A DNA stretch of 32,000 nt from Ignicoccus pacificus DSM 13166 (GCA_025340205.1 CP006868.1:600001-632000); one strand, 5' to 3'; positions 5,325 through 32,000 are shown, counted from the first letter of the stretch. The notes: generated from the letters alone by a model not told the origin. Translations and numbers: made by a program.

Positions 5325-6137
5325 TCAACAAATTCTTATGATAGAGTCTATAAGCTTAAACAACTGTTTCTCATCGTAGACATCTTTTTTGAAGAAGGGT
5401 ATAGCATAAGTAGGGCTTTTGAGACATATCCTTTCCCCGGTACTCTTATTCAAGAAACTCATCGAGTGTCTTATCCCAAACTCCTCTAGCTCCTCCGCCC
5501 CTCTCAGAGCTATCTTTAGGGGAAACCTCTCAGGCGTCGAAACCAAGACGTACTTCGAATCCTTTATTTCCTTTAAGACGTAATCCGCTATCTCCCTCCA
5601 CTTCTCTATTACCTTCAAGATTTTGGAACCTCTAAGGCCTAACTTAACTATTATCTTCCCGTATACTTTGGTGGCAGAGGTCATGTGATCATAGAAAATT
5701 TTCTCCGTCTTTAACATGTGGAGGACTGGGCCGAGGGGAGGGGTGTCAAAGTAGAGTACCTCAGCCCCCAGCTCTTGGGCTTTCTCCAAAGCAAACAACA
5801 TGGCGAACTGCTCAGGAACCCCGGGAGCTGTGGAAACGTGCTCCATCACTTCTTCTGCCTCTTTCCCTCTAATTCCAAGATCATCTAGTATTTCCTTTAG
5901 ATCCTCTCCGAACCTCTCGATCCAGAGCTTCCTGACCTTATCGTAATCTATTTCTGCAAAGTACTTTCCCTTATACTCAACGGGCTCGAAGGAGCACCTT
6001 ATGCCGATGACCTCACAGAGGTTGGGTAAGGGGTCTAGGGACATGGCAAACGTCCTCCTTTCCTCTTTAAGAGCTAGGGCGGCTGTAACGGTAGTTTTGC
6101 CCACACCTCCTTTTCCCACGACGAATATCTTATCCAA
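5325..6137 (-). CDS. ArsA/Get3-like (SIMIBI class) P-loop ATPase with degenerate switch motifs
   Basis: Deviant Walker A is VGKGGVGKTT. SLDPLPNL occupies the place of ArsA (S/T)DPAHSL, and FDTPPLGPVLHML the place of DTAPTGHT. The start overlaps the Lhr stop by 8 nt. Confidence 0.75.
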   Translation of the reverse strand: MDKIFVVGKGGVGKTTVTAALALKEERRTFAMSLDPLPNLCEVIGIRCSFEPVEYKGKYFAEIDYDKVRKLWIERFGEDLKEILDDLGIRGKEAEEVMEHVSTAPGVPEQFAMLFALEKAQELGAEVLYFDTPPLGPVLHMLKTEKIFYDHMTSATKVYGKIIVKLGLRGSKILKVIEKWREIADYVLKEIKDSKYVLVSTPERFPLKIALRGAEELEEFGIRHSMSFLNKSTGERICLKSPTYAIPFFKKDVYDEKQLFKLIDSIIRIC

Positions 6138-8748
6138 AGCTCAACCCGGTTTTCTGATCGGTCGAGCTTAATTCTTGCCTAAGCCCTATTCTCTGAAGTA
6201 CCATTTCCCTAAGCCTTTGCAATAACTTCCTCTTATCCTCCATTAATACCACGTCACTGAAGGACTTGGCAACTATTACGTGGGCGAACGGGCTGGGGAC
6301 GTCCAGGGGACCCACCACTCTGACCTCTACCCCCCCTTCGTGTATTCTTTTCACCGTTTCCAAGGCAGCCTCTATGTTCATATAGTCCTCCAGTATTTCC
6401 CTCAGCGTCTCCTTGTAAACGGGAAAGCCCTCGATGTTCTCAACCACCTTAATCAAATGCTGTGCCGAGAGCTGAAGCCTTTCGGGACTCTTCTCCCTTC
6501 CCATGTACCTCTTCAGTATCATGAATGACCTCTGAGCACAGTGCCTAAACCTCCTCTTGAACAGCTCCGTCCTCTTGACCGCTTCCTCCACGAGGGTCCT
6601 AAGGTTCTCCGGAGTAACTCCCCTTACCACCTCCATTGGGTCTACAGCTCTTTCCCTTGGAACGGTAAGCATGAAGCCGTAGTCGGTGACGGTGACGCTA
6701 ACGTTGGTGCCGGTAAGCTCTCCCAGCTTGTAGGCATAAGCTCTAGAGAGGGCGTCGATGCCCCTCCTCCCTATTAGGTAATGGAAGATGTAGTTTATTG
6801 TGTTGTCCTCTATGTTCTCCCAAATTTCAACGAGATAGGTCTTGTCCCCGGGCACAATGCCAACGTATCTTAACTGTTCCTCAGCGTACTCCTTCAGCGC
6901 CTTGGCTGCATGAGGTTCTAGAAGGTACCTCTCGATGAGTTCCTTCTCGCTCATACTAGGTAGACTTTCCCTGAACTTAGCCATCTCCCTGGCGGAGTCG
7001 TAAGCTAAAGGAAGCATCTCGCTGAACCAAGCGGGGACAGTCGGCCTTTCGCTAGGAGCCGGCTCCACGTAGATCCTCATTCCGTTAGCATAGAGGAACT
7101 TGTAGGTCCTACCACTTAACACGAACACGTCTCCGGGAACCAAGTTCTGCACGAAGAGCTCCTCCACGTGGCCGAGCAGCTGCTTGGTCTTAGCGTCGTA
7201 TACCTTAACCTTGCTTTCATCCGGTATAGTGCCCGCGTTCATCATGTATATCATTCTAGCTTGTCTCTTCCTCTTTAACACGTTCTTCTCCTTGTCCCAG
7301 TAGAGCTTGGAGTAAACCTTCTCGTCCTCGAGTCCGTATTCCCCAGCCAAGTACTTGACGACAGAGAGGAAGTCCTCCCAGCTCAAGTTCCAGTAGGGAT
7401 AAGCCCTCTTGGTGACTTCGTATGCCGTATCCAGTGGAATTTCGCCGTGCTCTATTGTCAAGCTTATCAAGTGCTGAGCTAAGACGTCCAAGGCGTTCCG
7501 AGGGATCCTAACTCTGTCTATCTTCCTATCTAACGCCAACTTGACGAGGACAGTATTTTCCATAAGGTCGTCCCTATCAACTACTATCACCCTCCCCTTC
7601 GAGACGGCATCTATCCTATGACCGGCCCTCCCTACCCTCTGCAAGAGTCTGCTCACGCTCTTAGGGCTTGAGAGGAGCACTACCAAGTCCACGTGTCCTA
7701 TATCTATTCCCATTTCCAATGATGTAGAGGTCACCACAACCTTCAACTCTCCCTTCTTCAGCTTCTCCTCGACCTCCAGCCTCACTTCCCTGGAAAGCGA
7801 GGAGTGATGGGTCTCTACCTTATCAGCCAGTCCTTCCTTTTCCAAGAGCTGCTTTAGCTTGAAGGCTACCTTCTCCGTGGAGTGTCTTGTATTGGTGAAT
7901 ATTATTACGCTGTTGTGACTCTTTATCAACTCAACCAACTTTTCATAGATCGCTTTATTGAGTTCCTCAGCGCTAGCATTAACTATGTCCTTAACCGGGC
8001 AGATGACCCTAATATCAACGGGTTTGGCGAATCTGGCGTCGACTATCCACGCCTCCCTATCCTTCCCCACCAAGAACTTCGCGACCTTCTCGAGAGGATG
8101 AATGGTAGCGGAGAGCCCTATCCTCACGAACTCCCCGGACCAGAGGGCCAACCTCTCCAAGGTCAAGGAGAGGTGGGTTCCTCTCTTACTAGATGCCATC
8201 TCGTGTATCTCATCCACTATAACGTACTCCACCCCCTTGAGCCTCTCCTTGAACTTCGTCGAGGCTAAGGCTATTGCCAGGCTCTCCGGGGTGGTGATCA
8301 GGATGTGCGGAGGCTTCCTTAACTGTCTCTGCTTCTCCGAGGGCGAGGTATCGCTAGTCCTTATCCCTACCCTCACCTCCTGAACCTCTTTTATTCCCTT
8401 CTCGGCCATCACTTGCCTTATCTCATTTAATGGCTCTACCAGGTTCCTCCTCATGTCGTTTCCCAACGCTCTCAAGGGAGAGACGTAGACAGCGTATACC
8501 TTGTCCTCGAGCTCCCCTCTTACAGCCTTTGCCAGAAGATCATCTAGAATTCCCAAGAAGGCAGCCAAAGTCTTCCCTGTTCCGGTAGGCGAGGAGATGA
8601 GTACGTTCTTTCTCTCTTTGATAAGCTTTATCGCTCCCCTTTGAGGAGGGCTCAGCTTGGAGTACTTTCTAGTGAACCACTCCCTCACGAAGGGCTGGAG
8701 CAGACCCAGAACCTCATCGCTCTCGGGCAAAGGCTCGAAGAGCTTCAC
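6130..8748 (-). CDS. lhr: Lhr-type superfamily 2 DEAD/DEAH-box helicase (Lhr core with C-terminal DEAD-associated domains)
   Basis: Motif I is SSPTGTGKTLAAFL, motif II DEIH, motif III SAT and motif VI QRVGRAGH, followed by a long C-terminal region typical of Lhr. The GTG at 8748 (VKLFEPLPESDEVL) is preferred over the listed 8823 start, which would overlap the upstream gene. Confidence 0.85.
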   Translation of the reverse strand: MKLFEPLPESDEVLGLLQPFVREWFTRKYSKLSPPQRGAIKLIKERKNVLISSPTGTGKTLAAFLGILDDLLAKAVRGELEDKVYAVYVSPLRALGNDMRRNLVEPLNEIRQVMAEKGIKEVQEVRVGIRTSDTSPSEKQRQLRKPPHILITTPESLAIALASTKFKERLKGVEYVIVDEIHEMASSKRGTHLSLTLERLALWSGEFVRIGLSATIHPLEKVAKFLVGKDREAWIVDARFAKPVDIRVICPVKDIVNASAEELNKAIYEKLVELIKSHNSVIIFTNTRHSTEKVAFKLKQLLEKEGLADKVETHHSSLSREVRLEVEEKLKKGELKVVVTSTSLEMGIDIGHVDLVVLLSSPKSVSRLLQRVGRAGHRIDAVSKGRVIVVDRDDLMENTVLVKLALDRKIDRVRIPRNALDVLAQHLISLTIEHGEIPLDTAYEVTKRAYPYWNLSWEDFLSVVKYLAGEYGLEDEKVYSKLYWDKEKNVLKRKRQARMIYMMNAGTIPDESKVKVYDAKTKQLLGHVEELFVQNLVPGDVFVLSGRTYKFLYANGMRIYVEPAPSERPTVPAWFSEMLPLAYDSAREMAKFRESLPSMSEKELIERYLLEPHAAKALKEYAEEQLRYVGIVPGDKTYLVEIWENIEDNTINYIFHYLIGRRGIDALSRAYAYKLGELTGTNVSVTVTDYGFMLTVPRERAVDPMEVVRGVTPENLRTLVEEAVKRTELFKRRFRHCAQRSFMILKRYMGREKSPERLQLSAQHLIKVVENIEGFPVYKETLREILEDYMNIEAALETVKRIHEGGVEVRVVGPLDVPSPFAHVIVAKSFSDVVLMEDKRKLLQRLREMVLQRIGLRQELSSTDQKTGLSFG

Positions 8749-8795
8749 TGACAACAGTGTTACCCGACTGCGGGTCAAACACGGTAAAAAGAGCG

Positions 8796-10337
8796 TTAGG
8801 TTAGAGGAGAGCCCTTGTAGCACCCGCTGGATATGTAGACGGTTCCGGTGTTTAGGTTCTCTCTGCTCACCAGTCCTCCTGTTGTAGGATTAACGACGGC
8901 AGAGTAGCAGAGCTCGTCGCCGTTGATGCTTGCTATTATGGTGATGCTGGACTTAGTGATGTTTTTCACTCCCACGACCTTGAAGTGGAATGTTCCAACG
9001 TTGGTAACTACGTCAAGTAAGTTCTTGGTGAAGTTTCCTAATCCGAAGATGTTCATAAAGCTTCCGTCGGTCTTGTAGATGACTCCTTGGAGCCAAGCGT
9101 AGCTTGGGGTGAGCTTGCCTATCCTTATCTCCTTCTTCCAGCCATGAGGATTGAGGTAGAGTATGGTGAACCCCTCTGGGCTGGCGGTCACGAAGGCGGC
9201 GTCTGCTAGATATCCTACTCCTTGGAAGTCTCCTATTCCCACAAAGTTGTAGAGTCCCGGCAAGACGAAGGACGTATTCTTGTTTTGAAGGACGTCGTAG
9301 AAGTACAGCTTGAAAGCGTGTACCGTTCCGGGTATAACGTTTTCTATCATGAGGATATATGGATTGGTCTTGTACGGGGCCTTCTCGAGGAACATGGGTC
9401 CGTAGGTGGTCAGCCTCATCTTCATGGGATTGAAGGTCCCGTTCGCTTGACCGTTATCACCTTTGTAGGCCCAGTAGACGTTCATGTCGAAACGCTTGGC
9501 CCATACGGCAAAGCATCCTTCGGCGTCTATGGCATCTGGAAGTATGTTCATAACGGTAGCGTTCTTGGCTTCGAACTTGAACTCCTTAAGCTTCTTCATT
9601 CCATGGAGGGCATCGTAGAAGGCGCAATAGCCGTAGGTTACGTTGCCCTTCTTCCAAGTCTTTATCTCCCAAGCGTAGATGTCGTTTCCTATCTTAATGA
9701 AGGAAGCTCTTCCAGTGGTGTTTATGTGGGCTATCTTCTTGGTTTGGTTACCGTAGAGTTCGTAAAGAGTGTTGTTTATCACCATGAGCAGCTTGTCATC
9801 CTTAACAGCATAGCTCATGAGTCTGGGGTCAATTACCGGCGCGCTGAGTCTGGGAAGGTCGTAGACTCCTACTAGCTTGCCGTCCTTAAAGGTCCATATT
9901 TGTTCCGTTCCTCCCACCGTCCTAACTGCGATGAACACAACTCCGTCCTTGGTGGGATAGTTAAGAGGAGCTGCTAACTTCACGTTTACGAGCTTTCTGA
10001 ACTTCATTGTATAGAGTTCCTTTTCGAATATCTTGTTAATGGTCCCCTTAGGCTTCGCTTGGGGCTTGGTTGTAGTAGCGGTGGTCGAAGTTTTGGGGGA
10101 TGCCTCCTTTACCTCCACATTAACCATTTCAGCCTTGCTGGTTCCCGTATGAACGGGCTTATGGATCAACACGAAGGCGAGGCCTATTATCGCGATTACC
10201 GCAATTATCACTGATGCAATTATTATCATCTTCCGGTTGTCCGCCTGAGCCTTACCTTCAGCGCTCACGAAGGCTTCACCGTGAGGCCTACATGCGGAGC
10301 GCTTATTCGCATTTAAGGTGTGGAACCAAAACTTCAA
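8796..10337 (-). CDS. Membrane-anchored extracellular protein, unknown function
   Basis: Start is TTG 10337 or, more plausibly, ATG 10229 (MIIIASVIIAVIAIIGLAFVLI, a single N-terminal TM anchor). A Thr/Pro/Lys-rich linker SPKTSTTATTTKPQAKPKG follows, then about 400 aa of aromatic, beta-rich ectodomain with several N-x-S/T sites. Confidence 0.7.
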   Translation of the reverse strand: MKFWFHTLNANKRSACRPHGEAFVSAEGKAQADNRKMIIIASVIIAVIAIIGLAFVLIHKPVHTGTSKAEMVNVEVKEASPKTSTTATTTKPQAKPKGTINKIFEKELYTMKFRKLVNVKLAAPLNYPTKDGVVFIAVRTVGGTEQIWTFKDGKLVGVYDLPRLSAPVIDPRLMSYAVKDDKLLMVINNTLYELYGNQTKKIAHINTTGRASFIKIGNDIYAWEIKTWKKGNVTYGYCAFYDALHGMKKLKEFKFEAKNATVMNILPDAIDAEGCFAVWAKRFDMNVYWAYKGDNGQANGTFNPMKMRLTTYGPMFLEKAPYKTNPYILMIENVIPGTVHAFKLYFYDVLQNKNTSFVLPGLYNFVGIGDFQGVGYLADAAFVTASPEGFTILYLNPHGWKKEIRIGKLTPSYAWLQGVIYKTDGSFMNIFGLGNFTKNLLDVVTNVGTFHFKVVGVKNITKSSITIIASINGDELCYSAVVNPTTGGLVSRENLNTGTVYISSGCYKGSPLT

Positions 10338-13754: not shown

Positions 13755-14456
13755 ATGCAAGTCCAGACGATGGGTAAGAAGAGCTTGATACTCTCGCAAG
13801 TGAGCATGACAATATTCGCGCTGGTCATGTCGTTCTTCCCAAATTACTACGGACTGCTACTGTTAGCGTACTTCTTAATAATGCCTGTAATAATGTACAA
13901 GTTCATGGCCAAGCCTCTAAAGGAGGCCATGGGCAGGGTAAAGGGAAAGACGCTGCATGAAGAGAACGCTAAGGAGCTATTCGAGAAGGATCCTGAGTTC
14001 GAGTGGATCATGAAGGGACAGATGTTCCAGAGCCTCCTCTCCAGCCTTCCCCTCTTAGTGTTAATCGCCTTCGGATTCACCCTATGGCCAGTGATAACGC
14101 ACATAAGCGATCCATGGATCAGATTCGCTGCTATAATAGCCTACTTCGAGGGTTATACGGTGCTCAACTACTTGGTCAACAAACACATGGCTAAGCAAGT
14201 AATGAAGGTGCCTAAGCCCATAACTAACTACAAGATTACCGACAAGGGAATACAGATAAAGCCCTTTGGTACCATCAACTTCCCGCTACAATCATATGTT
14301 GTAAAGCTGAAGAAGGAGAGCTACGCAGTGGATCTCCTTTCCAAAAAGGAGGGAAGTCCGAGCTATAGGATATACACGAAAAACCCGGAGAAGGTTTACC
14401 AGCTCCTCAGCTCCTTGGGGTTGAAGGTTGAAGAAGCTGAAAGTAGTGTTGCTTGA
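13755..14456 (+). CDS. Membrane protein (about 4 TM) with a soluble C-terminal beta-rich domain, possibly bacterial-PH-like
   Basis: Two hydrophobic hairpins are separated by a charged loop. The C-terminal ~90 aa (ITNYKITDKGIQIKPFGTINFPL...YRIYTKNPEKVYQLL) is soluble. The fold assignment is inference. Confidence 0.7.
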   Translation: MQVQTMGKKSLILSQVSMTIFALVMSFFPNYYGLLLLAYFLIMPVIMYKFMAKPLKEAMGRVKGKTLHEENAKELFEKDPEFEWIMKGQMFQSLLSSLPLLVLIAFGFTLWPVITHISDPWIRFAAIIAYFEGYTVLNYLVNKHMAKQVMKVPKPITNYKITDKGIQIKPFGTINFPLQSYVVKLKKESYAVDLLSKKEGSPSYRIYTKNPEKVYQLLSSLGLKVEEAESSVA

Positions 14457-15057
14457 ATCCTCTCTTGAACTAGCTCCCGGATGGCCCCGGGGACCCCTCA
14501 TCGATAAGAGGTATCATTATCATAGAATGTCTTCCCTCCCTCAGAAGTGGAAGAGGGGAAGGCCTGATATAGTGCACACAACCTTAATCCTACTCCAAGA
14601 CTCGTTCTTAAATATGGAAGGCCGCTTAGAGGTTTACATACATACGATAGACAACAAGGTGTATCGGGTAAGGGAAGACGAGAGGGTTCCAAAGCACTAC
14701 GACGCCTTCAAGGAGATAATGGCTCAAGTGTTAGAAAAAGGAAGGGTGCCTCCGGAGGGCGAGCCCTTAATATGGCTCGCCTATGATTCCCTCTCTGAAT
14801 TCGTGAAGGAGCACGGCGGGTTGATCTTGTTCTGGGAAGGAGGGAGGAGAGCTAAGTTCGTAGATGTGGCTAAAGATGCGTTGGAAAATGACCTTCCCGT
14901 CGGAATTGGAATGTTCCCCAGGGGCGACTTCAAGAGGAGCACGCTGAGGAAGGCTACCAGAAGGTACAGCGTAGCTGAGGGAAAACCTCTGAAGGCTTGG
15001 ACTATCGCCTACAAGCTACTCTGCGCAGCTGAGAGCTTGCTGGGAATAGACGTCTAA
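14428..15057 (+). CDS. nep1: Ribosomal RNA small subunit methyltransferase Nep1 (Emg1 family, SPOUT fold)
   Basis: Hallmark KRGRPDIVH motif, the typical VVLLESSLEL N-terminus and about 210 aa length. The TTG start overlaps the upstream gene by 29 nt. Confidence 0.85.
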   Translation: MKKLKVVLLESSLELAPGWPRGPLIDKRYHYHRMSSLPQKWKRGRPDIVHTTLILLQDSFLNMEGRLEVYIHTIDNKVYRVREDERVPKHYDAFKEIMAQVLEKGRVPPEGEPLIWLAYDSLSEFVKEHGGLILFWEGGRRAKFVDVAKDALENDLPVGIGMFPRGDFKRSTLRKATRRYSVAEGKPLKAWTIAYKLLCAAESLLGIDV

Positions 15058-15812: not shown

Positions 15813-17249
15813 TTGAGTACTCTTAAAGAGATGCACCCGAAGACCAAGAAGCAGATACTTCTCGACATGACTCTCATAGAAGGCCACATGAACGTAATAG
15901 TCGACACTGACGAAGGAATAATCAAGGACGTGAGGGTTCAAGGAATAGACTCGAGGTACTTCGAGAAGTTCTGTGAGGGCATGGCAATAGACGACCTCCC
16001 GAAGATAACTCCGAGGATCTGTGGCCTCTGTTCGGCCAGTCACCACGTCGCCTCTGCCATGGCTGTAGATCACGTTTATGGAGTCGAGATACCTCCTAGG
16101 GCCAAACTGATAAGAAGGGCCATAAACTATGGAATAATCTTGAACAACCACGTAATTCACTTAATAATGATGGGCTTTCCCGACCTACTGCTTAAGGGTA
16201 AGAACAGGAGCATGCTGAAGTTGATGACGGTGGACAAGGAGCTTGTGCAAGAGGGAATGAAGTTAGTAAAGCTAGGCCACGAGGCCGTGAGAGTCTTTGG
16301 AGGCAGGGACATCCACCCGGTAAGGGCTATGGGAGGGGGAGTAGCGAAGCCCCCCACCGAGACGGAGCTCAAGCTATTCAAGGAAATGCTCGAAAAACAC
16401 GAAGAGGTTATGAAGAAGTTCGTGAAAATGGCCCTTGACAAGCTCGCATCCGTGGAGGATCTCATAAAGTCCTACCCCAACGGAAACAAGTACTTCGGCG
16501 CGGTTGTACAAGGGAACAAGAGCGACTACTACGAGGGCAAGCTCAAGATAGTGGACCAGAAAGGCAACGTAGTAAAGGAGGTAGATCCCATAGACTATCA
16601 AAAAGCATTGAAGGAGTATACCTTCGACTGGACCTACATAAAGCCTGTCACCGTAGTAGATGAGGAGTATCCGGAAGGAGCCATAAGGGTAGGTCCCATC
16701 TCTAGGATAAACATCATAGATAGCTTCGGAACCCCTTGGGCGGACGAGCTCCTAGAGAACTTCCGCCAGAAGTTCGGAAGATATGCTTGGGACCCCTTGC
16801 TATACCACGAGGCGAGGGTCATAGAATCAGTCCACATGTTCGAAATGCTCAAGGAATTGATAGAAATGCCCGAGATGTGGGAAGGAGAGTACCTTATTGA
16901 CACTAATGGAATGAAGAACGAGAGGGGAGTGGGACTTACCGAGGCTCCTAGGGGAATACTGATTCACGACGTAACGGCCACGGAGAAGGACGGCGAAGTA
17001 GTTGTGAAGAAGTTCAACATAATAACTCCAACCGCAGTTAACGCCGCTGCTATTGAGAACGACTTGAAGAAGTTCCTCCTAGGAAAGAACTTGAAGGACG
17101 TAGAACAAGACCTCTACCGCATGGTCTCCTCCGTGGTGAGGTCATACGATCCATGCATGGCTTGTGCCACGCACTCGGTCTCTAAGGGACCGAGCATGGT
17201 AATTAGGATTAGGGAGAAGGGTAAAGAGGTAAGGGTGATCAAGGGATGA
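15813..17249 (+). CDS. [NiFe]-hydrogenase large (catalytic) subunit, group-3-like
   Basis: N-terminal Ni-binding motif RICGLCSASH (TGT at 16020), RVFGGRDIHP and EAPRG are present. The C-terminal motif DPCMACATH (GAT at 17148) is followed by a 24-aa extension. Confidence 0.9.
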   Translation: MSTLKEMHPKTKKQILLDMTLIEGHMNVIVDTDEGIIKDVRVQGIDSRYFEKFCEGMAIDDLPKITPRICGLCSASHHVASAMAVDHVYGVEIPPRAKLIRRAINYGIILNNHVIHLIMMGFPDLLLKGKNRSMLKLMTVDKELVQEGMKLVKLGHEAVRVFGGRDIHPVRAMGGGVAKPPTETELKLFKEMLEKHEEVMKKFVKMALDKLASVEDLIKSYPNGNKYFGAVVQGNKSDYYEGKLKIVDQKGNVVKEVDPIDYQKALKEYTFDWTYIKPVTVVDEEYPEGAIRVGPISRINIIDSFGTPWADELLENFRQKFGRYAWDPLLYHEARVIESVHMFEMLKELIEMPEMWEGEYLIDTNGMKNERGVGLTEAPRGILIHDVTATEKDGEVVVKKFNIITPTAVNAAAIENDLKKFLLGKNLKDVEQDLYRMVSSVVRSYDPCMACATHSVSKGPSMVIRIREKGKEVRVIKG

Positions 17250-17537: not shown

Positions 17538-17627
17538 GCCGCCGTAGCTCAGCCGGCAGAGCGCCGGCCTCGTACGGCGAACCGGGAAAGCCGGTGGTCG
17601 CGGGTTCAAGTCCCGCCGGCGGCTCCA
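17538..17627 (+). tRNA. tRNA-Thr (anticodon CGU) with a 14-nt intron at the canonical 37/38 position and a genomically encoded CCA
   Basis: Hand-folded cloverleaf. The acceptor pairs GCCGCCG with CGGCGGC and the D arm pairs GCTC with GAGC. The anticodon stem CCGGC/GCCGG carries the loop CU-CGU-A, and the T arm is GCGGG-TTCAAGT-CCCGC. The discriminator is U, followed by CCA. The intron is 17575-17588. Mature length is 76 nt. Confidence 0.9.
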
Positions 17628-17671
17628 AGCCTCTTAAATCCCTTTTCCCTCACGCTTTTGGGTACCAGTGC

Positions 17672-18652
17672 TTGTCCCTAGAGAACCTAAACGAGCGTCA
17701 GAAGAGGGCTCTTGAGAACGTCCTGAGAGCTCTCAAGGCTAACGACTACGAGTCAGCGAAGGTAATCATAGAGAGTGAGTTCGATGGGGAAACGAGGGAG
17801 GAGGTGATCAAGTACCTAGAGGACTTAGGGTACCACATATCGTTCCACTTAAAGAAGCCCGTTAAGAGCGCTGCTCCGAAGAACTTAGTAATAGTTAGGG
17901 AGAGGCCGAAGACGTTCAAGCCGATAAGCTTCGCTCCGGTCAGAATGCCTTTAACGCCCCCGATCTATAGAGAAAGACCCCTTACTAAGGAGTACGACTT
18001 AGCGCTAATCCCTCTGGCGGGGGCGGTATATTCTTTGATTAAAGAAGCTAAGTACGAGGTATTGATAATGTCTCACAAGCTCCATCCGAAGATATCGAAG
18101 GAGCTCCGAAAGCTCTCTAACCAAGGCTTGGAAGTGAAGGCGCTGCTCTCTGAGGGTTCGTGTGAGAGCATAAGGTTGCTGGGGGGAAGGAGCAAGAGGT
18201 GCTTGATCAAAGAGACCGTTAAGGGTTTGGGGTTAAGGTCCATTCCCTTGGGCCTTGCCCTCTACCTCAACTCTCCCTTCAATTCCTTGGCCGCCGCTAT
18301 AGGCGGGGTGGCCGGACTCTCCCTTCTAGGCTTGTGGGGACTGGCCTTGAGCGCCCTAGTCCTCTCCTCCCCTGCCTACTTGTACGCAGGCTTGCCTTGG
18401 GGCTTGAAGGGGGCCTCCATAACTTCCTTGCTTACCCTAGGTCTATCCTTAAGGGTGAAAAAGAGCAACGTGGAGCTCCGAACATTGGAAAGGGTTCCTT
18501 ATTCCATAGTAGTTGTTGATGGAAAGAAGGCTATCGTCGCCCACGCCCCCTTCTCTTGGAAGGGCGACGTCCTCTCGAGGGTCTACCGCTCTTCCGCCGA
18601 GGAGGCCTTGAGGGAGTTCCGGACTTTCTGGGAGGTTGCCTCTGCTCTATGA
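17672..18652 (+). CDS. Hypothetical protein with a helical N-domain and a PLD/TrmB-C-like domain (no HKD motif) interrupted by a Gly/Leu/Ser-rich hydrophobic insert
   Basis: The listed start at 17594 lies inside the tRNA, so the first start outside it, TTG 17672, is used. YEVLIMSHKLHPKISKELRKLSNQGLEVKALL and YSIVVVDGKKAIVAHAPF flank about 90 hydrophobic residues (PLGLALYLNSPF...SLLTLGLSL). Confidence 0.6.
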   Translation: MSLENLNERQKRALENVLRALKANDYESAKVIIESEFDGETREEVIKYLEDLGYHISFHLKKPVKSAAPKNLVIVRERPKTFKPISFAPVRMPLTPPIYRERPLTKEYDLALIPLAGAVYSLIKEAKYEVLIMSHKLHPKISKELRKLSNQGLEVKALLSEGSCESIRLLGGRSKRCLIKETVKGLGLRSIPLGLALYLNSPFNSLAAAIGGVAGLSLLGLWGLALSALVLSSPAYLYAGLPWGLKGASITSLLTLGLSLRVKKSNVELRTLERVPYSIVVVDGKKAIVAHAPFSWKGDVLSRVYRSSAEEALREFRTFWEVASAL

Positions 18653-21563: not shown

Positions 21564-22469
21564 TCAGCTCACCGACCCATGGTATATCGTTCCAGTCTTG
21601 GTTCCTATAAGAACCTCCGTTTCGTTGAGCCAGCCTATTGCGCTAACCTCGTCCACCCCGAAGTCAGCAATTACGTGACCGCGGAGGTCGTAGACCCTCA
21701 CACCTTCCCCATCGACGAAGTCGTAGTAGTGAACCGCTACCTTGTCGCAGAGAGGTGACAGCTTCACCGTAGCCTTTGGAGCTATCTTCATCAACTCCAC
21801 TTTTATGCTGAGTATCTCGTTAGCTTCCGTACCGTTAAGCTTGTACAGCAATAAGCGATCGCTGGTCTTTACCGCTAGCACATCGCCGCAGACGTCTGCC
21901 CCTTGCAAGTCATCATAGCCATAAGTTTGTCTTAAGTCGCCGTTGGCATCAATGACCACTACCAAGCCCTTAACGGTATCGACGTAGAACACCTCGTCGC
22001 CGTGACCGATGAGCTTTGAGGTCTTGAATAGGTCGGTATCCGCTCTCACAGCCCAGAGCCTTTCCCCTTGGAAATTGTAGGCTGCTATCACTCCGTTGAG
22101 CGCGTCGTATCCCACGATAATTGGTCTCTCACCTTTCCCCACTTTGATCATAGCTATGGAATCGGTTGGGTTAAACGGCCAGAAGTCTACCTTAAACTTA
22201 GCATTAAAGGAACCCACCTCCTTTAGGTTGGTGGCATTGTAGAGCTCTACAGTCCCCTCGTCGAAGGATATTGCAAAAGTTCCGCAACAGTAGGCGGCGC
22301 TCTTGATGGGCTCGTAGTACCTGTACCCCGTTATCCATCCCTTTGGACCGAGGAGTCCCGCTTGAGTCTTCCATACGATAAGAGTTCCGTAGGGGCTCCA
22401 TACTATCTGGTGCACTGAGGATGCCATCGTCATAGCTATTAGACTCAAGAGTACAGCGGAGCCCCTCAC
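21564..22469 (-). CDS. Secreted or membrane-anchored beta-rich protein, probably beta-propeller-like
   Basis: N-terminal hydrophobic signal/anchor is MRGSAVLLSLIAMTMASS. Recurring strand patterns include VVVIDANGDL, VRVYDLRGHVIADF and IIVGYDALNGVIAAYNFQG. The fold is inference. Confidence 0.7.
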   Translation of the reverse strand: MRGSAVLLSLIAMTMASSVHQIVWSPYGTLIVWKTQAGLLGPKGWITGYRYYEPIKSAAYCCGTFAISFDEGTVELYNATNLKEVGSFNAKFKVDFWPFNPTDSIAMIKVGKGERPIIVGYDALNGVIAAYNFQGERLWAVRADTDLFKTSKLIGHGDEVFYVDTVKGLVVVIDANGDLRQTYGYDDLQGADVCGDVLAVKTSDRLLLYKLNGTEANEILSIKVELMKIAPKATVKLSPLCDKVAVHYYDFVDGEGVRVYDLRGHVIADFGVDEVSAIGWLNETEVLIGTKTGTIYHGSVS

Positions 22470-25131: not shown

Positions 25132-26331
25132 TTAGAAGGGTTTGCGAAAGATAGTGTCGCTCCAGTCCTCTGAGAGCTTAACCCTACCGAAGCTGAGGTA
25201 CTTCGGCTCCCCCTGAAAGCACGTCCTAACCTTAACGAGCTTCTCTTGATACCTTATCCTAACCACCTCCCCCAGCACCTCGTTCCCACTTCCGTCGCCT
25301 AAGGCGACTAAGAGTCCTCTCTCCTCGCCCTCCTCTATCACTTCCACCTCTTTCACCTTCCTATACTTAGATCCTTTCCTAACCACTGCTATTACCTTCT
25401 TGTTATAAGGAACTACTATTAATGGTTTAGTACCTATGAGTTTGGTCACCGCTTCCTTCAGCTCCTCTCCTCCCCAAGGAGAGTTGAAGATGATGGAGTA
25501 GAGGGGATGCACTTCTTTCAAATCTATGTCTATGGTCTTACACCCTTCCAAGGCCTTCCTATACTTTTCCTTTCTTATCCCTCTCCTATCCTCCCTGCTC
25601 CTGGACCTTCCCGTAGAAGGGGGCAAGGAAAGCACCTTCCAAGGTCCTTGGGTCCACCAAGGAGGCTCTCCCATGTATATCACCAGCTCCGGTCTCACCG
25701 CCTCCAACAAGGAGCGCTTGTAGTAGCCAGCGTCAAATCCCTCAACCCAACCGTCGGTGTCGAGGACGTAGCTCGAGGAGGTCAAGGAAGCGACCGCCCC
25801 TATAACTCTCGACTGACACACTGCTGGAGTTATCGTCCCCGTGAACTTGCTTACTTGAGGCACCAAGTCGTTTAAAGTAAAGATGTAATCCTTAGCTTTA
25901 GTTTTACAGACAGTTGTTGGAAGGCAAAAGTTGCTTTGACCTACGTCAGAGTTTATTATTTCGATTTCCTTCCCCTTATTGAGCATGATGTTTACTAAGG
26001 TAGCCGTAACGCTGCTCTTCCCGCTATCCGTAGGTCCTAGTATAACCACCCTCTCAGCGTCGACCTCGTTCAGCTTATCCTCCCACACCTTTGATACGTT
26101 GTAATCTGTCAGCTTAACCTCTGATGTGGACGTTAAGGATACACTAACTTTCATGTCCTCGAGGGCCCTCACCACGTAGGTCCTCCACTGAGGAACAATG
26201 ATGAAGTCGCTTTTGCTCAAGACCTTTCCCATAAGCGTTCCCTTTCCTTCCACAACCCTCAGAGCAGCGGGTCCCGATATCTCCAAGAACTTGCCCTGTG
26301 GAATTAGAATTTCCTTATGATCTATCATCAT
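25132..26331 (-). CDS. Clp1/Grc3-family polynucleotide 5'-hydroxyl kinase (archaeal Clp1 homologue)
   Basis: An N-terminal beta domain is followed by Walker A GPTDSGKSS and an NSDVGQS motif (D-x-GQ). Confidence 0.8.
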   Translation of the reverse strand: MMIDHKEILIPQGKFLEISGPAALRVVEGKGTLMGKVLSKSDFIIVPQWRTYVVRALEDMKVSVSLTSTSEVKLTDYNVSKVWEDKLNEVDAERVVILGPTDSGKSSVTATLVNIMLNKGKEIEIINSDVGQSNFCLPTTVCKTKAKDYIFTLNDLVPQVSKFTGTITPAVCQSRVIGAVASLTSSSYVLDTDGWVEGFDAGYYKRSLLEAVRPELVIYMGEPPWWTQGPWKVLSLPPSTGRSRSREDRRGIRKEKYRKALEGCKTIDIDLKEVHPLYSIIFNSPWGGEELKEAVTKLIGTKPLIVVPYNKKVIAVVRKGSKYRKVKEVEVIEEGEERGLLVALGDGSGNEVLGEVVRIRYQEKLVKVRTCFQGEPKYLSFGRVKLSEDWSDTIFRKPF

Positions 26332-28750: not shown

Positions 28751-29680
28751 TTGATCGAACAGAGAAAGTTGGTGAAGTTGGGGAAGTCCACGCTGGTAAT
28801 CTCCTTGCCGGCCGAGTGGGTGCGCAAAAAAGGGCTTAAGGCCGGCGATACCTTGACGCTCTATATAGACGAAAACGAGATAACCATAATTCCCTCAACC
28901 CTTGGAAGCTCTCACAAGATAACAGCAACTATAAGGGTGAAGAGAATCGAAGATGAGGTTCTCTATAGAATGATAGTTTCCGCTTACATAGCCGGAGCTC
29001 AAGACATAACCATTGAGCTGGAAGATACTTCATTAATGAAGGAAGTGCTCAAACAAGTGAAGAACGCCACCTCCCATCTAATAGGTCTCGAAATGGTGGA
29101 TCAGAGTCTAAACAAGGTAGTCCTCCAAGCCTTTACCGACGTTCACGCTCAGAGCCTTGAAAGCCTAATAAATAGAATCTTGAAGTTGATGATTCTGATG
29201 CTTGATCATTTAAAAGAGGAAAAGATAGATTTGAGCTATCTAAACGACCTAGAGAATGAGATAGACAAGCTCTATAGGCTCACAATGAGGAGAGCCAACC
29301 TCACGCACGAGTTCTCCCGTTATTCCTTAACGTTCCTACCATCGTTCTTGTTAATGCTCGAGACGGTCTCAGACAGCATCATTCCACTAGCGAACGCCCT
29401 TGAAGGTAACTATAAGCAAGTGGCTGACGTAATTGAAATAACCAAGGAAACTCTCAAGTTCCTCGTTACTTACAGGATAGGACAAGGAAACGTTATGGAG
29501 ATAAATAAGAGAATAGAAGCTTTCGAACAGCTAGAGGGAGAGATCTTCCAGAGGGATCTTCCCCAAACGCTGAGGTACCGTTGCCTCAACTTCATCCACC
29601 TCTTAAAGAACGCGTTGCTAGTAGTCTTCAATATGGAAGTAGCTGAACTGATAAAGAAGTCTAAAGTGATAGTTCTTTGA
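28751..29680 (+). CDS. AbrB/SpoVT-domain plus PhoU-like regulator (archaeal phosphate uptake regulator type)
   Basis: The N-terminus KLGKSTLVISLPAEWVRKKGLKAGDTLTL is an AbrB swapped-hairpin motif. The remainder is helical repeats of PhoU size. Confidence 0.75.
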   Translation: MIEQRKLVKLGKSTLVISLPAEWVRKKGLKAGDTLTLYIDENEITIIPSTLGSSHKITATIRVKRIEDEVLYRMIVSAYIAGAQDITIELEDTSLMKEVLKQVKNATSHLIGLEMVDQSLNKVVLQAFTDVHAQSLESLINRILKLMILMLDHLKEEKIDLSYLNDLENEIDKLYRLTMRRANLTHEFSRYSLTFLPSFLLMLETVSDSIIPLANALEGNYKQVADVIEITKETLKFLVTYRIGQGNVMEINKRIEAFEQLEGEIFQRDLPQTLRYRCLNFIHLLKNALLVVFNMEVAELIKKSKVIVL

Positions 29681-29975
29681 GCTTCTTCAACCACCATTCC
29701 TTGTACTTCTCCTTGTCCTTGCTAGTCTCCCTTACAACTTCGTCTAACTTAGAATAGCATATCTTACACACCCTTATGCCAGGATTAAGCTCGACGCTAC
29801 ACTCTCTACAGATGAGTCTTCCGCAGTAGTAGCACCTGCTTACGGAGAGTCTTTCTCTGCATACTTCACACCTTCCCATCTCACATGCTGGACAAGGGTC
29901 GTGAAGAGTGCAAAGAGGTCTTCCGCAGCTTGGGCACTTTTTTGCCGATGGCCTTCCACAGTAGTAGCAACGCAA
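29661..29975 (-). CDS. Tandem treble-clef (AN1/B-box-like) zinc-finger protein with a Lys/Glu-rich tail
   Basis: There are 17 Cys and 1 His in the first 73 residues. RCYYCGR occurs twice (RCYYCGRPSAKKCPSCGRPLCTLH and RCYYCGRLICRECS). The TTG at 29975 overlaps the permease 3' end by 95 nt. An alternative ATG at 29879 would delete the first repeat. Confidence 0.6.
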   Translation of the reverse strand: MRCYYCGRPSAKKCPSCGRPLCTLHDPCPACEMGRCEVCRERLSVSRCYYCGRLICRECSVELNPGIRVCKICYSKLDEVVRETSKDKEKYKEWWLKKLKELSL

Positions 29976-30672
29976 TTGTCATTACCGATACGGAATAGCT
30001 CAGGGGAAGGAAAAGGGATAGCGTCGCCGATGCCAAGGTAAAGACAAACGTAAGCATTATTTCCTCCTTTATCGTCTGGGCGCTGTAGCCGAGCAAGAGA
30101 GCGCCCAACGAGACCACGTGAGCCAGGAGGAATCCGTGGGAAAAGGTTAGGGTCGTGCCAGTCATTATAGCAAGTAAGAAGGTAAGGCCTATCCAAAGGG
30201 AGGGCTTGAGTCCCCTTACCTCACAGTATTCGGGATCGAAGATCGAATACTTGACGTTATCGTAAAACAGCACGTAGAGCGCGAACAGAACCAGCGAGAT
30301 AGCTAACATTTCCACGAGCTCCGGAGTTGGGGCGATGAACCCAGTTACAAAGGATTGGACCATTTCGTAGTACGAGTAAGAGACGAACGATAGGGAAAGC
30401 AGAGATATGGTATAGGCTATTACCTTTAAGTAAATGATACTTATTTCCTCTTTCTTTACCACTAAGAGGAGCAGTACAGCTGAGATCACCACCACCAATG
30501 GAAGTAAGGAGGGACAACAAGCGAGAGCCAGGAGAGCTGACGCCATGGCGAAGTCCGAGGAAGCTGGAACTAAGAAGCCGCTCTTGAGCGGGATTAAGGA
30601 TTTTCCTAATCTGACCAATACCACGAAAATAGCCACATTGATTAAGAGCATACTAATGTTCATGCTGGTCAC
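29881..30672 (-). CDS. ABC-3 family (ZnuB/MntB/TroCD-like) metal transporter permease
   Basis: About 8 hydrophobic segments, ~260 aa, overlapping the upstream ZnuC-like ATPase gene by 20 nt. Confidence 0.7.
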   Translation of the reverse strand: MTSMNISMLLINVAIFVVLVRLGKSLIPLKSGFLVPASSDFAMASALLALACCPSLLPLVVVISAVLLLLVVKKEEISIIYLKVIAYTISLLSLSFVSYSYYEMVQSFVTGFIAPTPELVEMLAISLVLFALYVLFYDNVKYSIFDPEYCEVRGLKPSLWIGLTFLLAIMTGTTLTFSHGFLLAHVVSLGALLLGYSAQTIKEEIMLTFVFTLASATLSLFLPLSYSVSVMTIALLLLWKAIGKKVPKLRKTSLHSSRPLSSM

Positions 30673-31435
30673 CCAAGAGAGGATAGCATATTCCGTCGTA
30701 AGATATTACCTTCACATGTATACCATATGCCTTCATAAGGTTTTCCGTCGTGAGAACCTCCTTTGGTTTACCCACGGCTATGAGTTTCTTATTGAGTAGC
30801 GCAACTCTCTTTATTGAATCGAGTATGGGAGCTAGGTCATGGGTGACCACCACTATGGTCTTCCCTTCTTGGTTGAGCTTCCTTAGCAAGGAAGCGACTA
30901 CCCTAGAGCTGTAAGCGTCCAGGGCCGAGAACGGCTCATCTAGTAAGAGAAGCTTTGGGTCGCTCACTATAGCCCTTGCGATGAGTACCCTCTGCTTTTG
31001 ACCTCCAGATAGTTCCCGGAAGAGCTTGTAGGCTACGTCCCTCAAGTTCACGTATTCTAACGCTTTAAGGGCCTTTTCCATGGCTTTATTCCTATTGAAG
31101 AGGAATTTCTTGGTGCTTATACCCATTAGAACTACATCTATAGCCCTTAAGGGTACCTTGTCGTTCACGTTCTCCTTCTGCGGCACGTACCCTATGTTCT
31201 CGACGACGACCTTCCTGTTCTTGAAGGGATCCTCTCCGAAGACCCTTACCTCCCCCTTTTCAGGCTTGACGACGCCTAGAATCACCTTGAGGAGTGTGCT
31301 CTTTCCAGCTCCATTAGGGCCGAGGATCGCCATATAATCTTGGGAGGGAATCTCTAGGTTTATGCCTTGTAAAGCGTATTCGTTTCTAAAACGGACCCAA
31401 ACGTCCTTGAGCTCGGCGACGTTCGTGGAAATCAC
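30653..31435 (-). CDS. ABC transporter ATP-binding protein (ZnuC/MntA-like)
   Basis: Walker A is GPNGAGKST, the signature LSGGQKQR, Walker B LLLLDEP and the H-loop VTHD. The GTG start lies 1 nt after the upstream stop. Confidence 0.9.
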   Translation of the reverse strand: MISTNVAELKDVWVRFRNEYALQGINLEIPSQDYMAILGPNGAGKSTLLKVILGVVKPEKGEVRVFGEDPFKNRKVVVENIGYVPQKENVNDKVPLRAIDVVLMGISTKKFLFNRNKAMEKALKALEYVNLRDVAYKLFRELSGGQKQRVLIARAIVSDPKLLLLDEPFSALDAYSSRVVASLLRKLNQEGKTIVVVTHDLAPILDSIKRVALLNKKLIAVGKPKEVLTTENLMKAYGIHVKVISYDGICYPLLGDQHEH

Positions 31436-31436
31436 C

Positions 31437-31871
31437 TCAGAGATAGTCGTCGAAGTCCCGGACCTTCTTGCCCATCTGGCGGAACTCCTTCTCCTCCTCT
31501 TCGAGATCCTTGAGGAAGTCTTCCTCCTTTTCCTCCTTTCTCAGCGCCCACGCGCATCTTCCATCAGGTAACAAGTACTTTCTCTCACAGTAGGCATATT
31601 GACAGTTGTAGCCTATACACCTATCCCCTACGAGTCTGCACATGACGACGGTCATCATCCTTCCTTTGATATACTTCTTAGTATACATTAAGGCGTTCTG
31701 TGAACACCTGAAGAAGGGGCACGCTGGGTTGCACTTGTCCCCTACTGGCTTCGGCGTTGCGTCCCTTCTGTACCCTCTATCCCTTCTAGGTCCTCCTCCT
31801 CTTCCAGTTCCTCTTCCTCCCCTTCTTCCGCCTCTCCTGAATCCATCGTAGCTCAAGGCGTGGACCCCCAC
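31437..31871 (-). CDS. RGG-repeat / eight-Cys / acidic-tail hypothetical protein
   Basis: GTG start is preceded by AAGGAGACAAG. The N-terminus is GFRRGGRRGGRGTGRGGGPRRDRGYRRD. The centre has Cys spacing C-x3-C-x4-C...C-x6-C-x4-C-x4-C-x10-C. The C-terminus is EEKEEDFLKDLEEEEKEF...DFDDYL. Confidence 0.6.
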   Translation of the reverse strand: MGVHALSYDGFRRGGRRGGRGTGRGGGPRRDRGYRRDATPKPVGDKCNPACPFFRCSQNALMYTKKYIKGRMMTVVMCRLVGDRCIGYNCQYAYCERKYLLPDGRCAWALRKEEKEEDFLKDLEEEEKEFRQMGKKVRDFDDYL

Positions 31872-32000
31872 CTTGTCTCCTTATCTTACCTTATTGCCTA
31901 GGGCAAGTACCACTTAAAAACGATATGATGCACGTTCTCCCCTTTGATTATTGCAAGCATGAACCTCTTCCTGACGCCGTGGGCCACTCTCCCAGCCCTA

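Follow-up and report, generated by a model that had tools for sequence, protein, structure and literature searches.

Do the tightly packed minus-strand genes at one end of a 32,000-nt stretch of the Ignicoccus pacificus DSM 13166 genome (CP006868.1:600001-632000, called the window here at its full length) form a single metal-handling system? Four open reading frames (ORFs) lie there, as the original prediction described. The first (31871-31437, GTG start) codes for a 144 aa product with eight cysteines, as had been counted, and three RGG motifs, and is referred to below as the 8-Cys protein. It is followed by genes for an ATP-binding cassette (ABC) ATPase (31435-30653, GTG start, 260 aa), for a permease (30672-29881, 263 aa if read from the GTG) and for a zinc-finger protein (29975-29661, TTG start, 104 aa). 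The original prediction took the four as one dedicated metal system, in which two Cys-rich accessory proteins bracket a zinc transporter that has no binding protein. The explanation favoured here, with moderate confidence, is that the array consists of two units lying side by side: an old one, made up of the tRNA-splicing endonuclease gene (endA) and the 8-Cys gene, and a young one, made up of an ABC-3-like transporter and the zinc finger.

The array does not begin at 31871, as had been supposed. The edge of the window conceals at least two further genes on the same strand, one PhoU_div-like and the other endA, and the window would hold only the distal part of an array with the order PhoU_div-like, endA, 8-Cys, ABC ATPase, ABC-3-like permease, zinc finger. 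The 3' end of endA, which would code for a catalytic-type subunit, can be recognised at 31898..32000 (minus strand, cut by the window edge) from its sequence and its similarity to the corresponding gene of a related genome, L004. Positions 31999-31901 encode a peptide ending in RAGRVAHGVRKRFMLAIIKGENVHHIVFKWYLP, with the stop codon at 31900-31898, and the 33 C-terminal residues that fall within the window align with the C-terminus of an L004 protein, itself a carrier of PF02778 and PF01974, at 52% identity (85% positives). A full-length endA is present at the syntenic position in two other relatives, L088 and L089. There the same-strand order is PhoU_div-like, endA, 8-Cys, ATPase, permease, with a divergent AsnC-type regulator upstream of the array and a convergent AbrB-domain gene downstream.

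Because the peptide encoded at 31999-31901 matches the C-terminus of EndA, the TATA-like TTTTTAAG (31920-31913), which had been put forward as the promoter of the first gene, falls inside the 3' end of the endA coding sequence. Only 26 nt (31872..31897, minus strand) separate endA from the 8-Cys gene. This spacer contains AAGGAG (31882-31877), 5 nt before the GTG, which would serve as the Shine-Dalgarno-like ribosome-binding site of an internal operon gene. The promoter scan used a bacterial sigma-70 pattern and is uninformative for an archaeon; terminator-like matches were not meaningfully above the shuffled background.

The association with endA extends far beyond Ignicoccus. When each GTDB species was represented by one genome, a survey for the 8-Cys protein yielded 116 relatives, from which 80 loci were retained; neighbours were counted over the 79 loci from Sulfolobales, Desulfurococcales and Acidilobales, and cysteines over 78 members. 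By ORF clustering, endA is the direct upstream neighbour on the same strand in 76/79 loci, and by tblastn an endA homologue lies directly upstream, on the same strand, in every locus with upstream sequence. The spacer between the two genes has a median of about 41 nt. A PhoU_div-like gene is found upstream in 69 of the surveyed loci, and the downstream neighbour in 68/79 is a convergent gene for a PF02441 flavoprotein. Together they belong to a conserved block of five genes, coding for a 137-aa coiled-coil protein, the PhoU_div-like protein, EndA, the 8-Cys protein and the convergent PF02441 flavoprotein. The block is seen in L006-L083, across all three orders (for example at 3112-5976 in L009); no connection with tRNA splicing is known for its coiled-coil protein or for its PhoU_div-like protein.

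ABC genes, on the other hand, are rare companions of the 8-Cys gene: in 74 loci there is none within 5 kb. Among the surveyed loci, tblastn detects the ABC ATPase, permease and zinc finger downstream of the 8-Cys gene only in L004 and L005, and searches with hidden Markov models (HMMs) over six-frame ORFs from all loci place the permease only in the window, L004, L005, L088 and L089. Since the 8-Cys gene follows endA in 76/79 loci and adjoins ABC genes only in these five Ignicoccus-like genomes, it belongs to the endA unit, and its product is not a component or accessory of the transporter. By the refuting test set in the original prediction, the idea that it is a conserved flank of ABC-3 transporters is thus not borne out, although the four-gene order itself does recur in the four related genomes (L004, L005, L088, L089).

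These counts bear directly on the reading in which all four genes make up a dedicated metal-uptake or metal-handling system, with the 8-Cys and zinc-finger proteins acting as metallochaperones or sensors in place of the binding protein. The layout speaks for it. The TGA stop of the 8-Cys gene (31439-31437) lies 1 nt from the GTG of the ATPase gene at 31435, just as first described, the junctions are tight in 5/5 genomes with the transporter, both small proteins are rich in cysteine, and there is no binding-protein gene nearby. However, the 8-Cys protein is equally conserved, with all its cysteines, in the 74 loci where 5 kb around holds no ABC gene, and in these its gene always follows endA. 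Neither small protein has a signal or membrane segment, which would make both cytoplasmic and incapable of replacing an extracytoplasmic binding protein, and homologues of the zinc finger occur without a transporter. As far as the 8-Cys protein is concerned this reading is largely refuted, and as an explanation of the whole array it is very unlikely.

The 8-Cys protein has an N-terminal tail (residues 1-37) that is basic, rich in R and G (isoelectric point 11.9) and holds the three RGG motifs, a basic core (residues 38-110) that holds C47, C51, C56, C78, C85, C90, C95 and C106, and a C-terminus that forms a charged helix. All eight cysteines are kept in 77/78 family members, the window protein included, with the pattern Cx3Cx4C...Cx6Cx4Cx4Cx10C, which the window protein fits; shared motifs are CNPxCPFFRC, GDxC and LLPDGRC. 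The median net charge of the core across the family is +7, and the tail is conserved in composition (R/G-rich, basic) but not in sequence. In a set of 5.8 billion proteins the family amounts to 31 clusters, with members from Ignicoccus, Acidilobus, Stygiolobus and related archaea only, and it is specific to Sulfolobales, Desulfurococcales and Acidilobales. Its members (Igni_0119, ASAC_0035 and KN1_20160 among them) are all called 'hypothetical' in the databases, with no Pfam domain. The window protein has no family match in Pfam, NCBIfam or PADLOC, and none in profile searches against PDB sequences. Sub-threshold Pfam matches in 19 family members (DUF7097, for example, in 1/19) were scattered and were rejected as noise.

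The eight invariant cysteines most likely hold two Cys4 metal sites, occupied by zinc or, less likely, by an Fe-S cluster. A disordered R/G-rich tail beside a small Cys-rich core is a feature shared with RGG/RG-tailed RNA-binding proteins and small archaeal zinc-finger proteins, although none of these families resembles the 8-Cys protein by sequence or by profile. A basic core combined with an R/G-rich tail is typical of nucleic-acid binders, and the 8-Cys protein would be expected to bind nucleic acid, with pre-tRNA or another RNA as the most plausible ligand. In the two-unit explanation, the endA/8-Cys pair that has been kept across the three orders would have the 8-Cys protein made together with the splicing endonuclease, binding pre-tRNA or another RNA.

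A serious rival to this view of the older unit is that the adjacency of endA and the 8-Cys gene is nothing more than inherited synteny, the 8-Cys protein being a housekeeping protein unrelated to tRNA splicing, such as a zinc protein that binds DNA or chromatin, a small protein with an Fe-S cluster, or a structural protein held together by disulfides. The five-gene block is conserved as a whole and not just as the endA/8-Cys pair, its other members have no obvious tRNA role, and the 8-Cys protein shows no homology to any RNA-processing family. Against this, adjacency on the same strand, with the short median spacer given above, persists across deeply diverged families, and the basic core and R/G-rich tail suit a nucleic-acid binder, a point that fits DNA as well as RNA. 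Inherited synteny is quite possible on this evidence, and we rank it below the favoured explanation.

Crenarchaeal EndA is of the heterotetrameric alpha2-beta2 type. The gene upstream of the 8-Cys gene codes for an EndA with PF02778 and PF01974 in the relatives. The 8-Cys protein has no EndA-like domain, and a role as the structural (beta) subunit was considered and rejected on that ground. No description of a Cys-rich partner for archaeal EndA is known to us, and literature searches brought none to light. A bolder version of events would make the 8-Cys protein a metal-binding partner of EndA, as a subunit or pre-tRNA cofactor, in an operon that, in the Ignicoccus-like lineage, has captured a highly diverged, binding-protein-less ABC-3 importer together with its four-zinc finger. 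This is considered unlikely; if true, it would couple metal supply to the expression of these zinc proteins.

Some further genes touch on the endA/8-Cys pair or on tRNA splicing. In one Desulfurococcales metagenome-assembled genome, L083, a distant homologue of the zinc-finger gene (5845-6132, plus strand) lies about 2 kb downstream of the pair, and a second ORF with a tRNA_int_endo domain (6856-7335, plus strand, 159 aa), possibly a structural subunit, lies 2-3 kb downstream of it; L083 is alone among the loci in having these two nearby. In Acidilobus saccharovorans (L001) a PF01545 gene for a cation-diffusion-facilitator metal efflux protein (6359-7237, minus strand) overlaps the 3' end of the 8-Cys gene, and that it replaces the usual flavoprotein as convergent neighbour is probably coincidence. 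In the window, a Clp1-type P-loop polynucleotide kinase (25132-26331, minus strand; PF16575, 87 bits) is encoded about 5 kb from endA, and a Clp1-type kinase gene occupies the equivalent position in L088 and L089. Eukaryotic Clp1 associates with the tRNA-splicing endonuclease complex, and by analogy the proximity to endA may be more than chance. The single tRNA found in the window by Rfam is a tRNA-Thr (CGT) at 17538-17627 on the plus strand, which is 90 nt long by ARAGORN; the Rfam match covers 87 nt against a model of 71 positions. An intron is probably present in it, and it would in that case be a substrate of the endonuclease encoded nearby.

The second unit of the two-unit explanation is the core of an ABC importer, placed directly after the endA unit in the Ignicoccus-like lineage only. 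In its ATPase the Walker A (GPNGAGKS), signature (LSGGQ), Walker B (LLLLDEP) and H-loop (THD) motifs are intact, and the protein matches PF00005 with 117.5 bits. Of the NCBIfam models, anch_rpt_ABC, AztA and MntA fit it best, each under its equivalog cut-off, and its closest solved structure is 7KYO_B (153 bits), which is PsaB, the ATPase of the pneumococcal Mn ABC transporter. It is of the PsaB/ZnuC/AztA kind and, going by its motifs, catalytically intact; the earlier description of it as ZnuC-like agrees with this. A defence-system reading was rejected: PADLOC gave generic ABC/AAA matches for the ATPase only and none for the other three proteins.

The permease is much harder to place. It has about eight hydrophobic segments by hydropathy and no Pfam or NCBIfam match, even at E<=1; nothing was found for it in profile searches against PDB sequences, and its closer relatives (P0046-P0051) likewise lack a Pfam ABC-3 match. 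A word index returns four relatives only, and an exhaustive HMM search of 1.84 billion proteins brings the family to 9 representatives. The weakest significant matches to the permease profile in that search, P0052 and P0053 (E 5.8e-6 and 6e-5), are genuine ABC-3 proteins, with 105-108 bits against PF00950. A comparison by hhalign of the permease with ABC-3 gives 96.7% probability (E 4.5e-10, 124 columns) and aligns its FDPEYxExRGLxP with the FDxExAxASGIxP of ABC-3, the coupling-helix motif. Membership of ABC-3 thus misses the Pfam gathering score, and is indicated by profile homology and by the presence of a partner ATPase of the ZnuC/PsaB/MntA type. The permease is an extremely diverged ABC-3 (ZnuB/PsaC-type) relative that has kept the coupling-helix motif. 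Of the earlier label 'ZnuB-like', the remote ABC-3 homology stands with profile methods, and a match to any Pfam or NCBIfam family does not.

When the transporter is set beside the PsaBC, MntBC and ZnuBC metal importers of ABC-3 (type II, cluster A-I; an example is S. pneumoniae PsaBC, 7KYO), the ATPase is nearest to PsaB and to the AztA and MntA models, the permease is a remote ABC-3 relative with an FDxExAxxxG coupling motif, and the ATPase gene precedes that of the permease, the two overlapping at their ends. It differs from them in that the permease is under every Pfam and NCBIfam threshold, that a four-zinc finger gene is embedded in the permease 3' end, that the family is limited to a handful of Ignicoccus-like genomes, and that no cluster A-I binding-protein gene is found in the operon or within ±10 kb. 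No PF01297-type binding protein occurs among the 38 window ORFs scanned (the zinc-finger ORF of 104 aa and 37/43 of those with 110 aa or more; the other six overlap in an alternate frame or on the opposite strand), and the records of L088 and L089 show none within ±10 kb of the cluster. The absence of a binding protein near the transporter, noted from the start, therefore holds in both places. As an importer, the transporter would carry a divalent metal, whether Zn, Mn or Fe, and its binding protein would be encoded elsewhere or not needed.

These same features could instead indicate that the ATPase and permease are not a metal importer at all, being an ABC-3-derived exporter, a transporter for another substrate or a non-transport ABC mechanotransducer. 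Such a change of function would account for both the missing binding protein (none within ±10 kb in L088 and L089) and the extreme divergence; the lack of a Pfam match, the mere 9 representatives in 1.84e9 proteins and an hhalign alignment that spans 124 of about 260 columns all agree with it. Yet both subunits have their nearest relatives among metal importers, the ATPase being closest to PsaB, AztA and MntA and the permease to PF00950 proteins. Moreover, the coupling-helix motif of ABC-3 is retained, and an unlinked binding protein may be encoded elsewhere in the genome. On balance a non-importer seems doubtful, and a metal importer is preferred.

The last gene of the array codes for a protein with 15 Cys and one His (His25), and not with 17 Cys as first counted. 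They are arranged in eight CxxC/CxxH pairs, and these 16 ligands are enough for four Zn sites; across 13 homologues these positions vary little or not at all. The layout is that of two B-box-like modules followed by a K/E-rich C-terminal helix. The protein passes the gathering cut-off for DZR (PF12773; 28.6 bits, cut-off 27.3), and the assignment to a tandem zinc finger can be retained, while its weak matches to B-box (PF00643) stay below the cut-off (16.2 bits against 24.1). Compared with DZR and B-box fingers, the eight pairs fit two cross-braced modules of two zincs each; the window protein differs in being free-standing, archaeal and about 100 aa long, in its conserved CGRLICRECSVELQPGIRVC motif and in the small size of its family (10 clusters).

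The junctions within the transporter unit are as tight as first reported. The ATPase and permease genes overlap by 20 nt if the permease starts at GTG 30672; in-frame ATGs at 30663 and 30651 would reduce the overlap to 11 nt or 0 nt, and a protein-collection entry for the window permease (P0032, 256 aa) agrees with the start at 30651. The permease and zinc-finger genes overlap by 95 nt. In 5/5 permease-bearing genomes the start of the zinc-finger gene falls within the 3' end of the permease gene and is in the +1 frame; the two genes share about 68-98 nt, and within the overlap it is the zinc-finger frame that is conserved while the permease tails diverge. At L088 10704-11006 (plus strand) and L089 10692-10964 (plus strand) the zinc-finger gene is present with 61-64% identity and is absent from the gene lists of the assemblies, where it was probably overlooked owing to its non-ATG start inside the permease gene.

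As translation of the zinc finger begins at a TTG within the 3' end of the permease gene, the protein would probably be made by translational coupling. It would partner the transporter in the cytoplasm, as its regulator or as a metal sensor. The constant +1 frame and the weak TTG start could also mean that permease and zinc finger are one polypeptide, produced by a programmed +1 frameshift in the overlap, so that the permease would carry a four-zinc domain in the cytoplasm. However, no slippery or shift-prone motif turned up, the shared frame may just reflect common ancestry, overlapping starts are common in compact archaeal operons, and homologues of the zinc finger exist as free-standing genes. 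A frameshift product is extremely improbable, and two separate proteins, translationally coupled, are preferred.

The distant homologues (L083-L087, 39-48% identity) lie in unrelated neighbourhoods with no transporter adjoining. The link between the zinc finger and the transporter is consistent; because the distant homologues lie apart from transporters, it is also specific to the lineage. The same observation counts against the original picture of two accessory proteins dedicated to one metal system, of which the other is tied to endA. There is no common downstream partner of the zinc-finger gene: it is followed by a ThiF-like gene in L004 and L005 and by unrelated genes in L084-L087. In these two genomes, the more distant of the Ignicoccus-like relatives, the ThiF-family (E1-like) gene (L004 7075-7650, L005 5216-5695, both on the plus strand) shares its strand with the zinc-finger gene, whose 3' end it overlaps. 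Its place is taken by a convergent gene with an AbrB domain in L088, L089 and the window. The one in the window codes for a 309 aa protein with an AbrB/SpoVT domain (28751-29680, plus strand), is the convergent neighbour that closes the array, and overlaps the zinc-finger gene by 20 nt, 3' end to 3' end.

Several points weigh against a division of the array into two units with the roles proposed for them. Because only 1 nt lies between them, the 8-Cys gene and the ABC genes are probably co-transcribed in the Ignicoccus-like lineage, and a lineage-specific functional tie between the 8-Cys protein and the transporter may exist. As the entire endA block is syntenic, adjacency alone is no proof of a functional link between EndA and the 8-Cys protein. 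The cysteines of the latter may bind zinc, bind an Fe-S cluster or form disulfides. AlphaFold2 models were unusable, with a mean confidence (pLDDT) of 48 for the full protein (19 sequences) and of 53 for the core (31 sequences); they predicted only a beta-hairpin and the C-terminal helix, with no fold assignable. The divergence of the permease leaves its substrate, and even the direction of transport, uncertain. Literature searches, by locus tags and for an endA-linked Cys-rich protein, returned nothing on any gene of the array.

With the two-unit explanation, what appeared to be a zinc system of four proteins resolves into two adjoining units, of which the older offers the strongest lead: an uncharacterised protein with eight invariant cysteines, kept beside the tRNA-splicing endonuclease gene across an archaeal order. 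Its homologues are present in Sulfolobales, to which the genetically tractable species of Sulfolobus belong, and a role in pre-tRNA processing is directly testable there. The ABC part shows how far ABC-3 can diverge with the coupling motif still kept. It is also a candidate importer without a nearby binding protein in the Ignicoccus-like lineage; the cell envelope of Ignicoccus, the cultured member of that lineage, is unusual. There is in addition a gap in annotation, the zinc-finger gene having been missed by gene callers in two public assemblies.

The remaining genes of the window are of mixed kinds. Three ORFs, at 21564-22469 (301 aa), 17594-18652 (352 aa) and 8796-10337 (513 aa), have no significant family match, the second of them having one sub-threshold match in NCBIfam. 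An Lhr-type large helicase is encoded at 6130-8823 (minus strand), an EMG1/NEP1 methyltransferase at 14428-15057 (plus strand) and a protein resembling the large subunit of NiFe-hydrogenase at 15813-17249 (plus strand).

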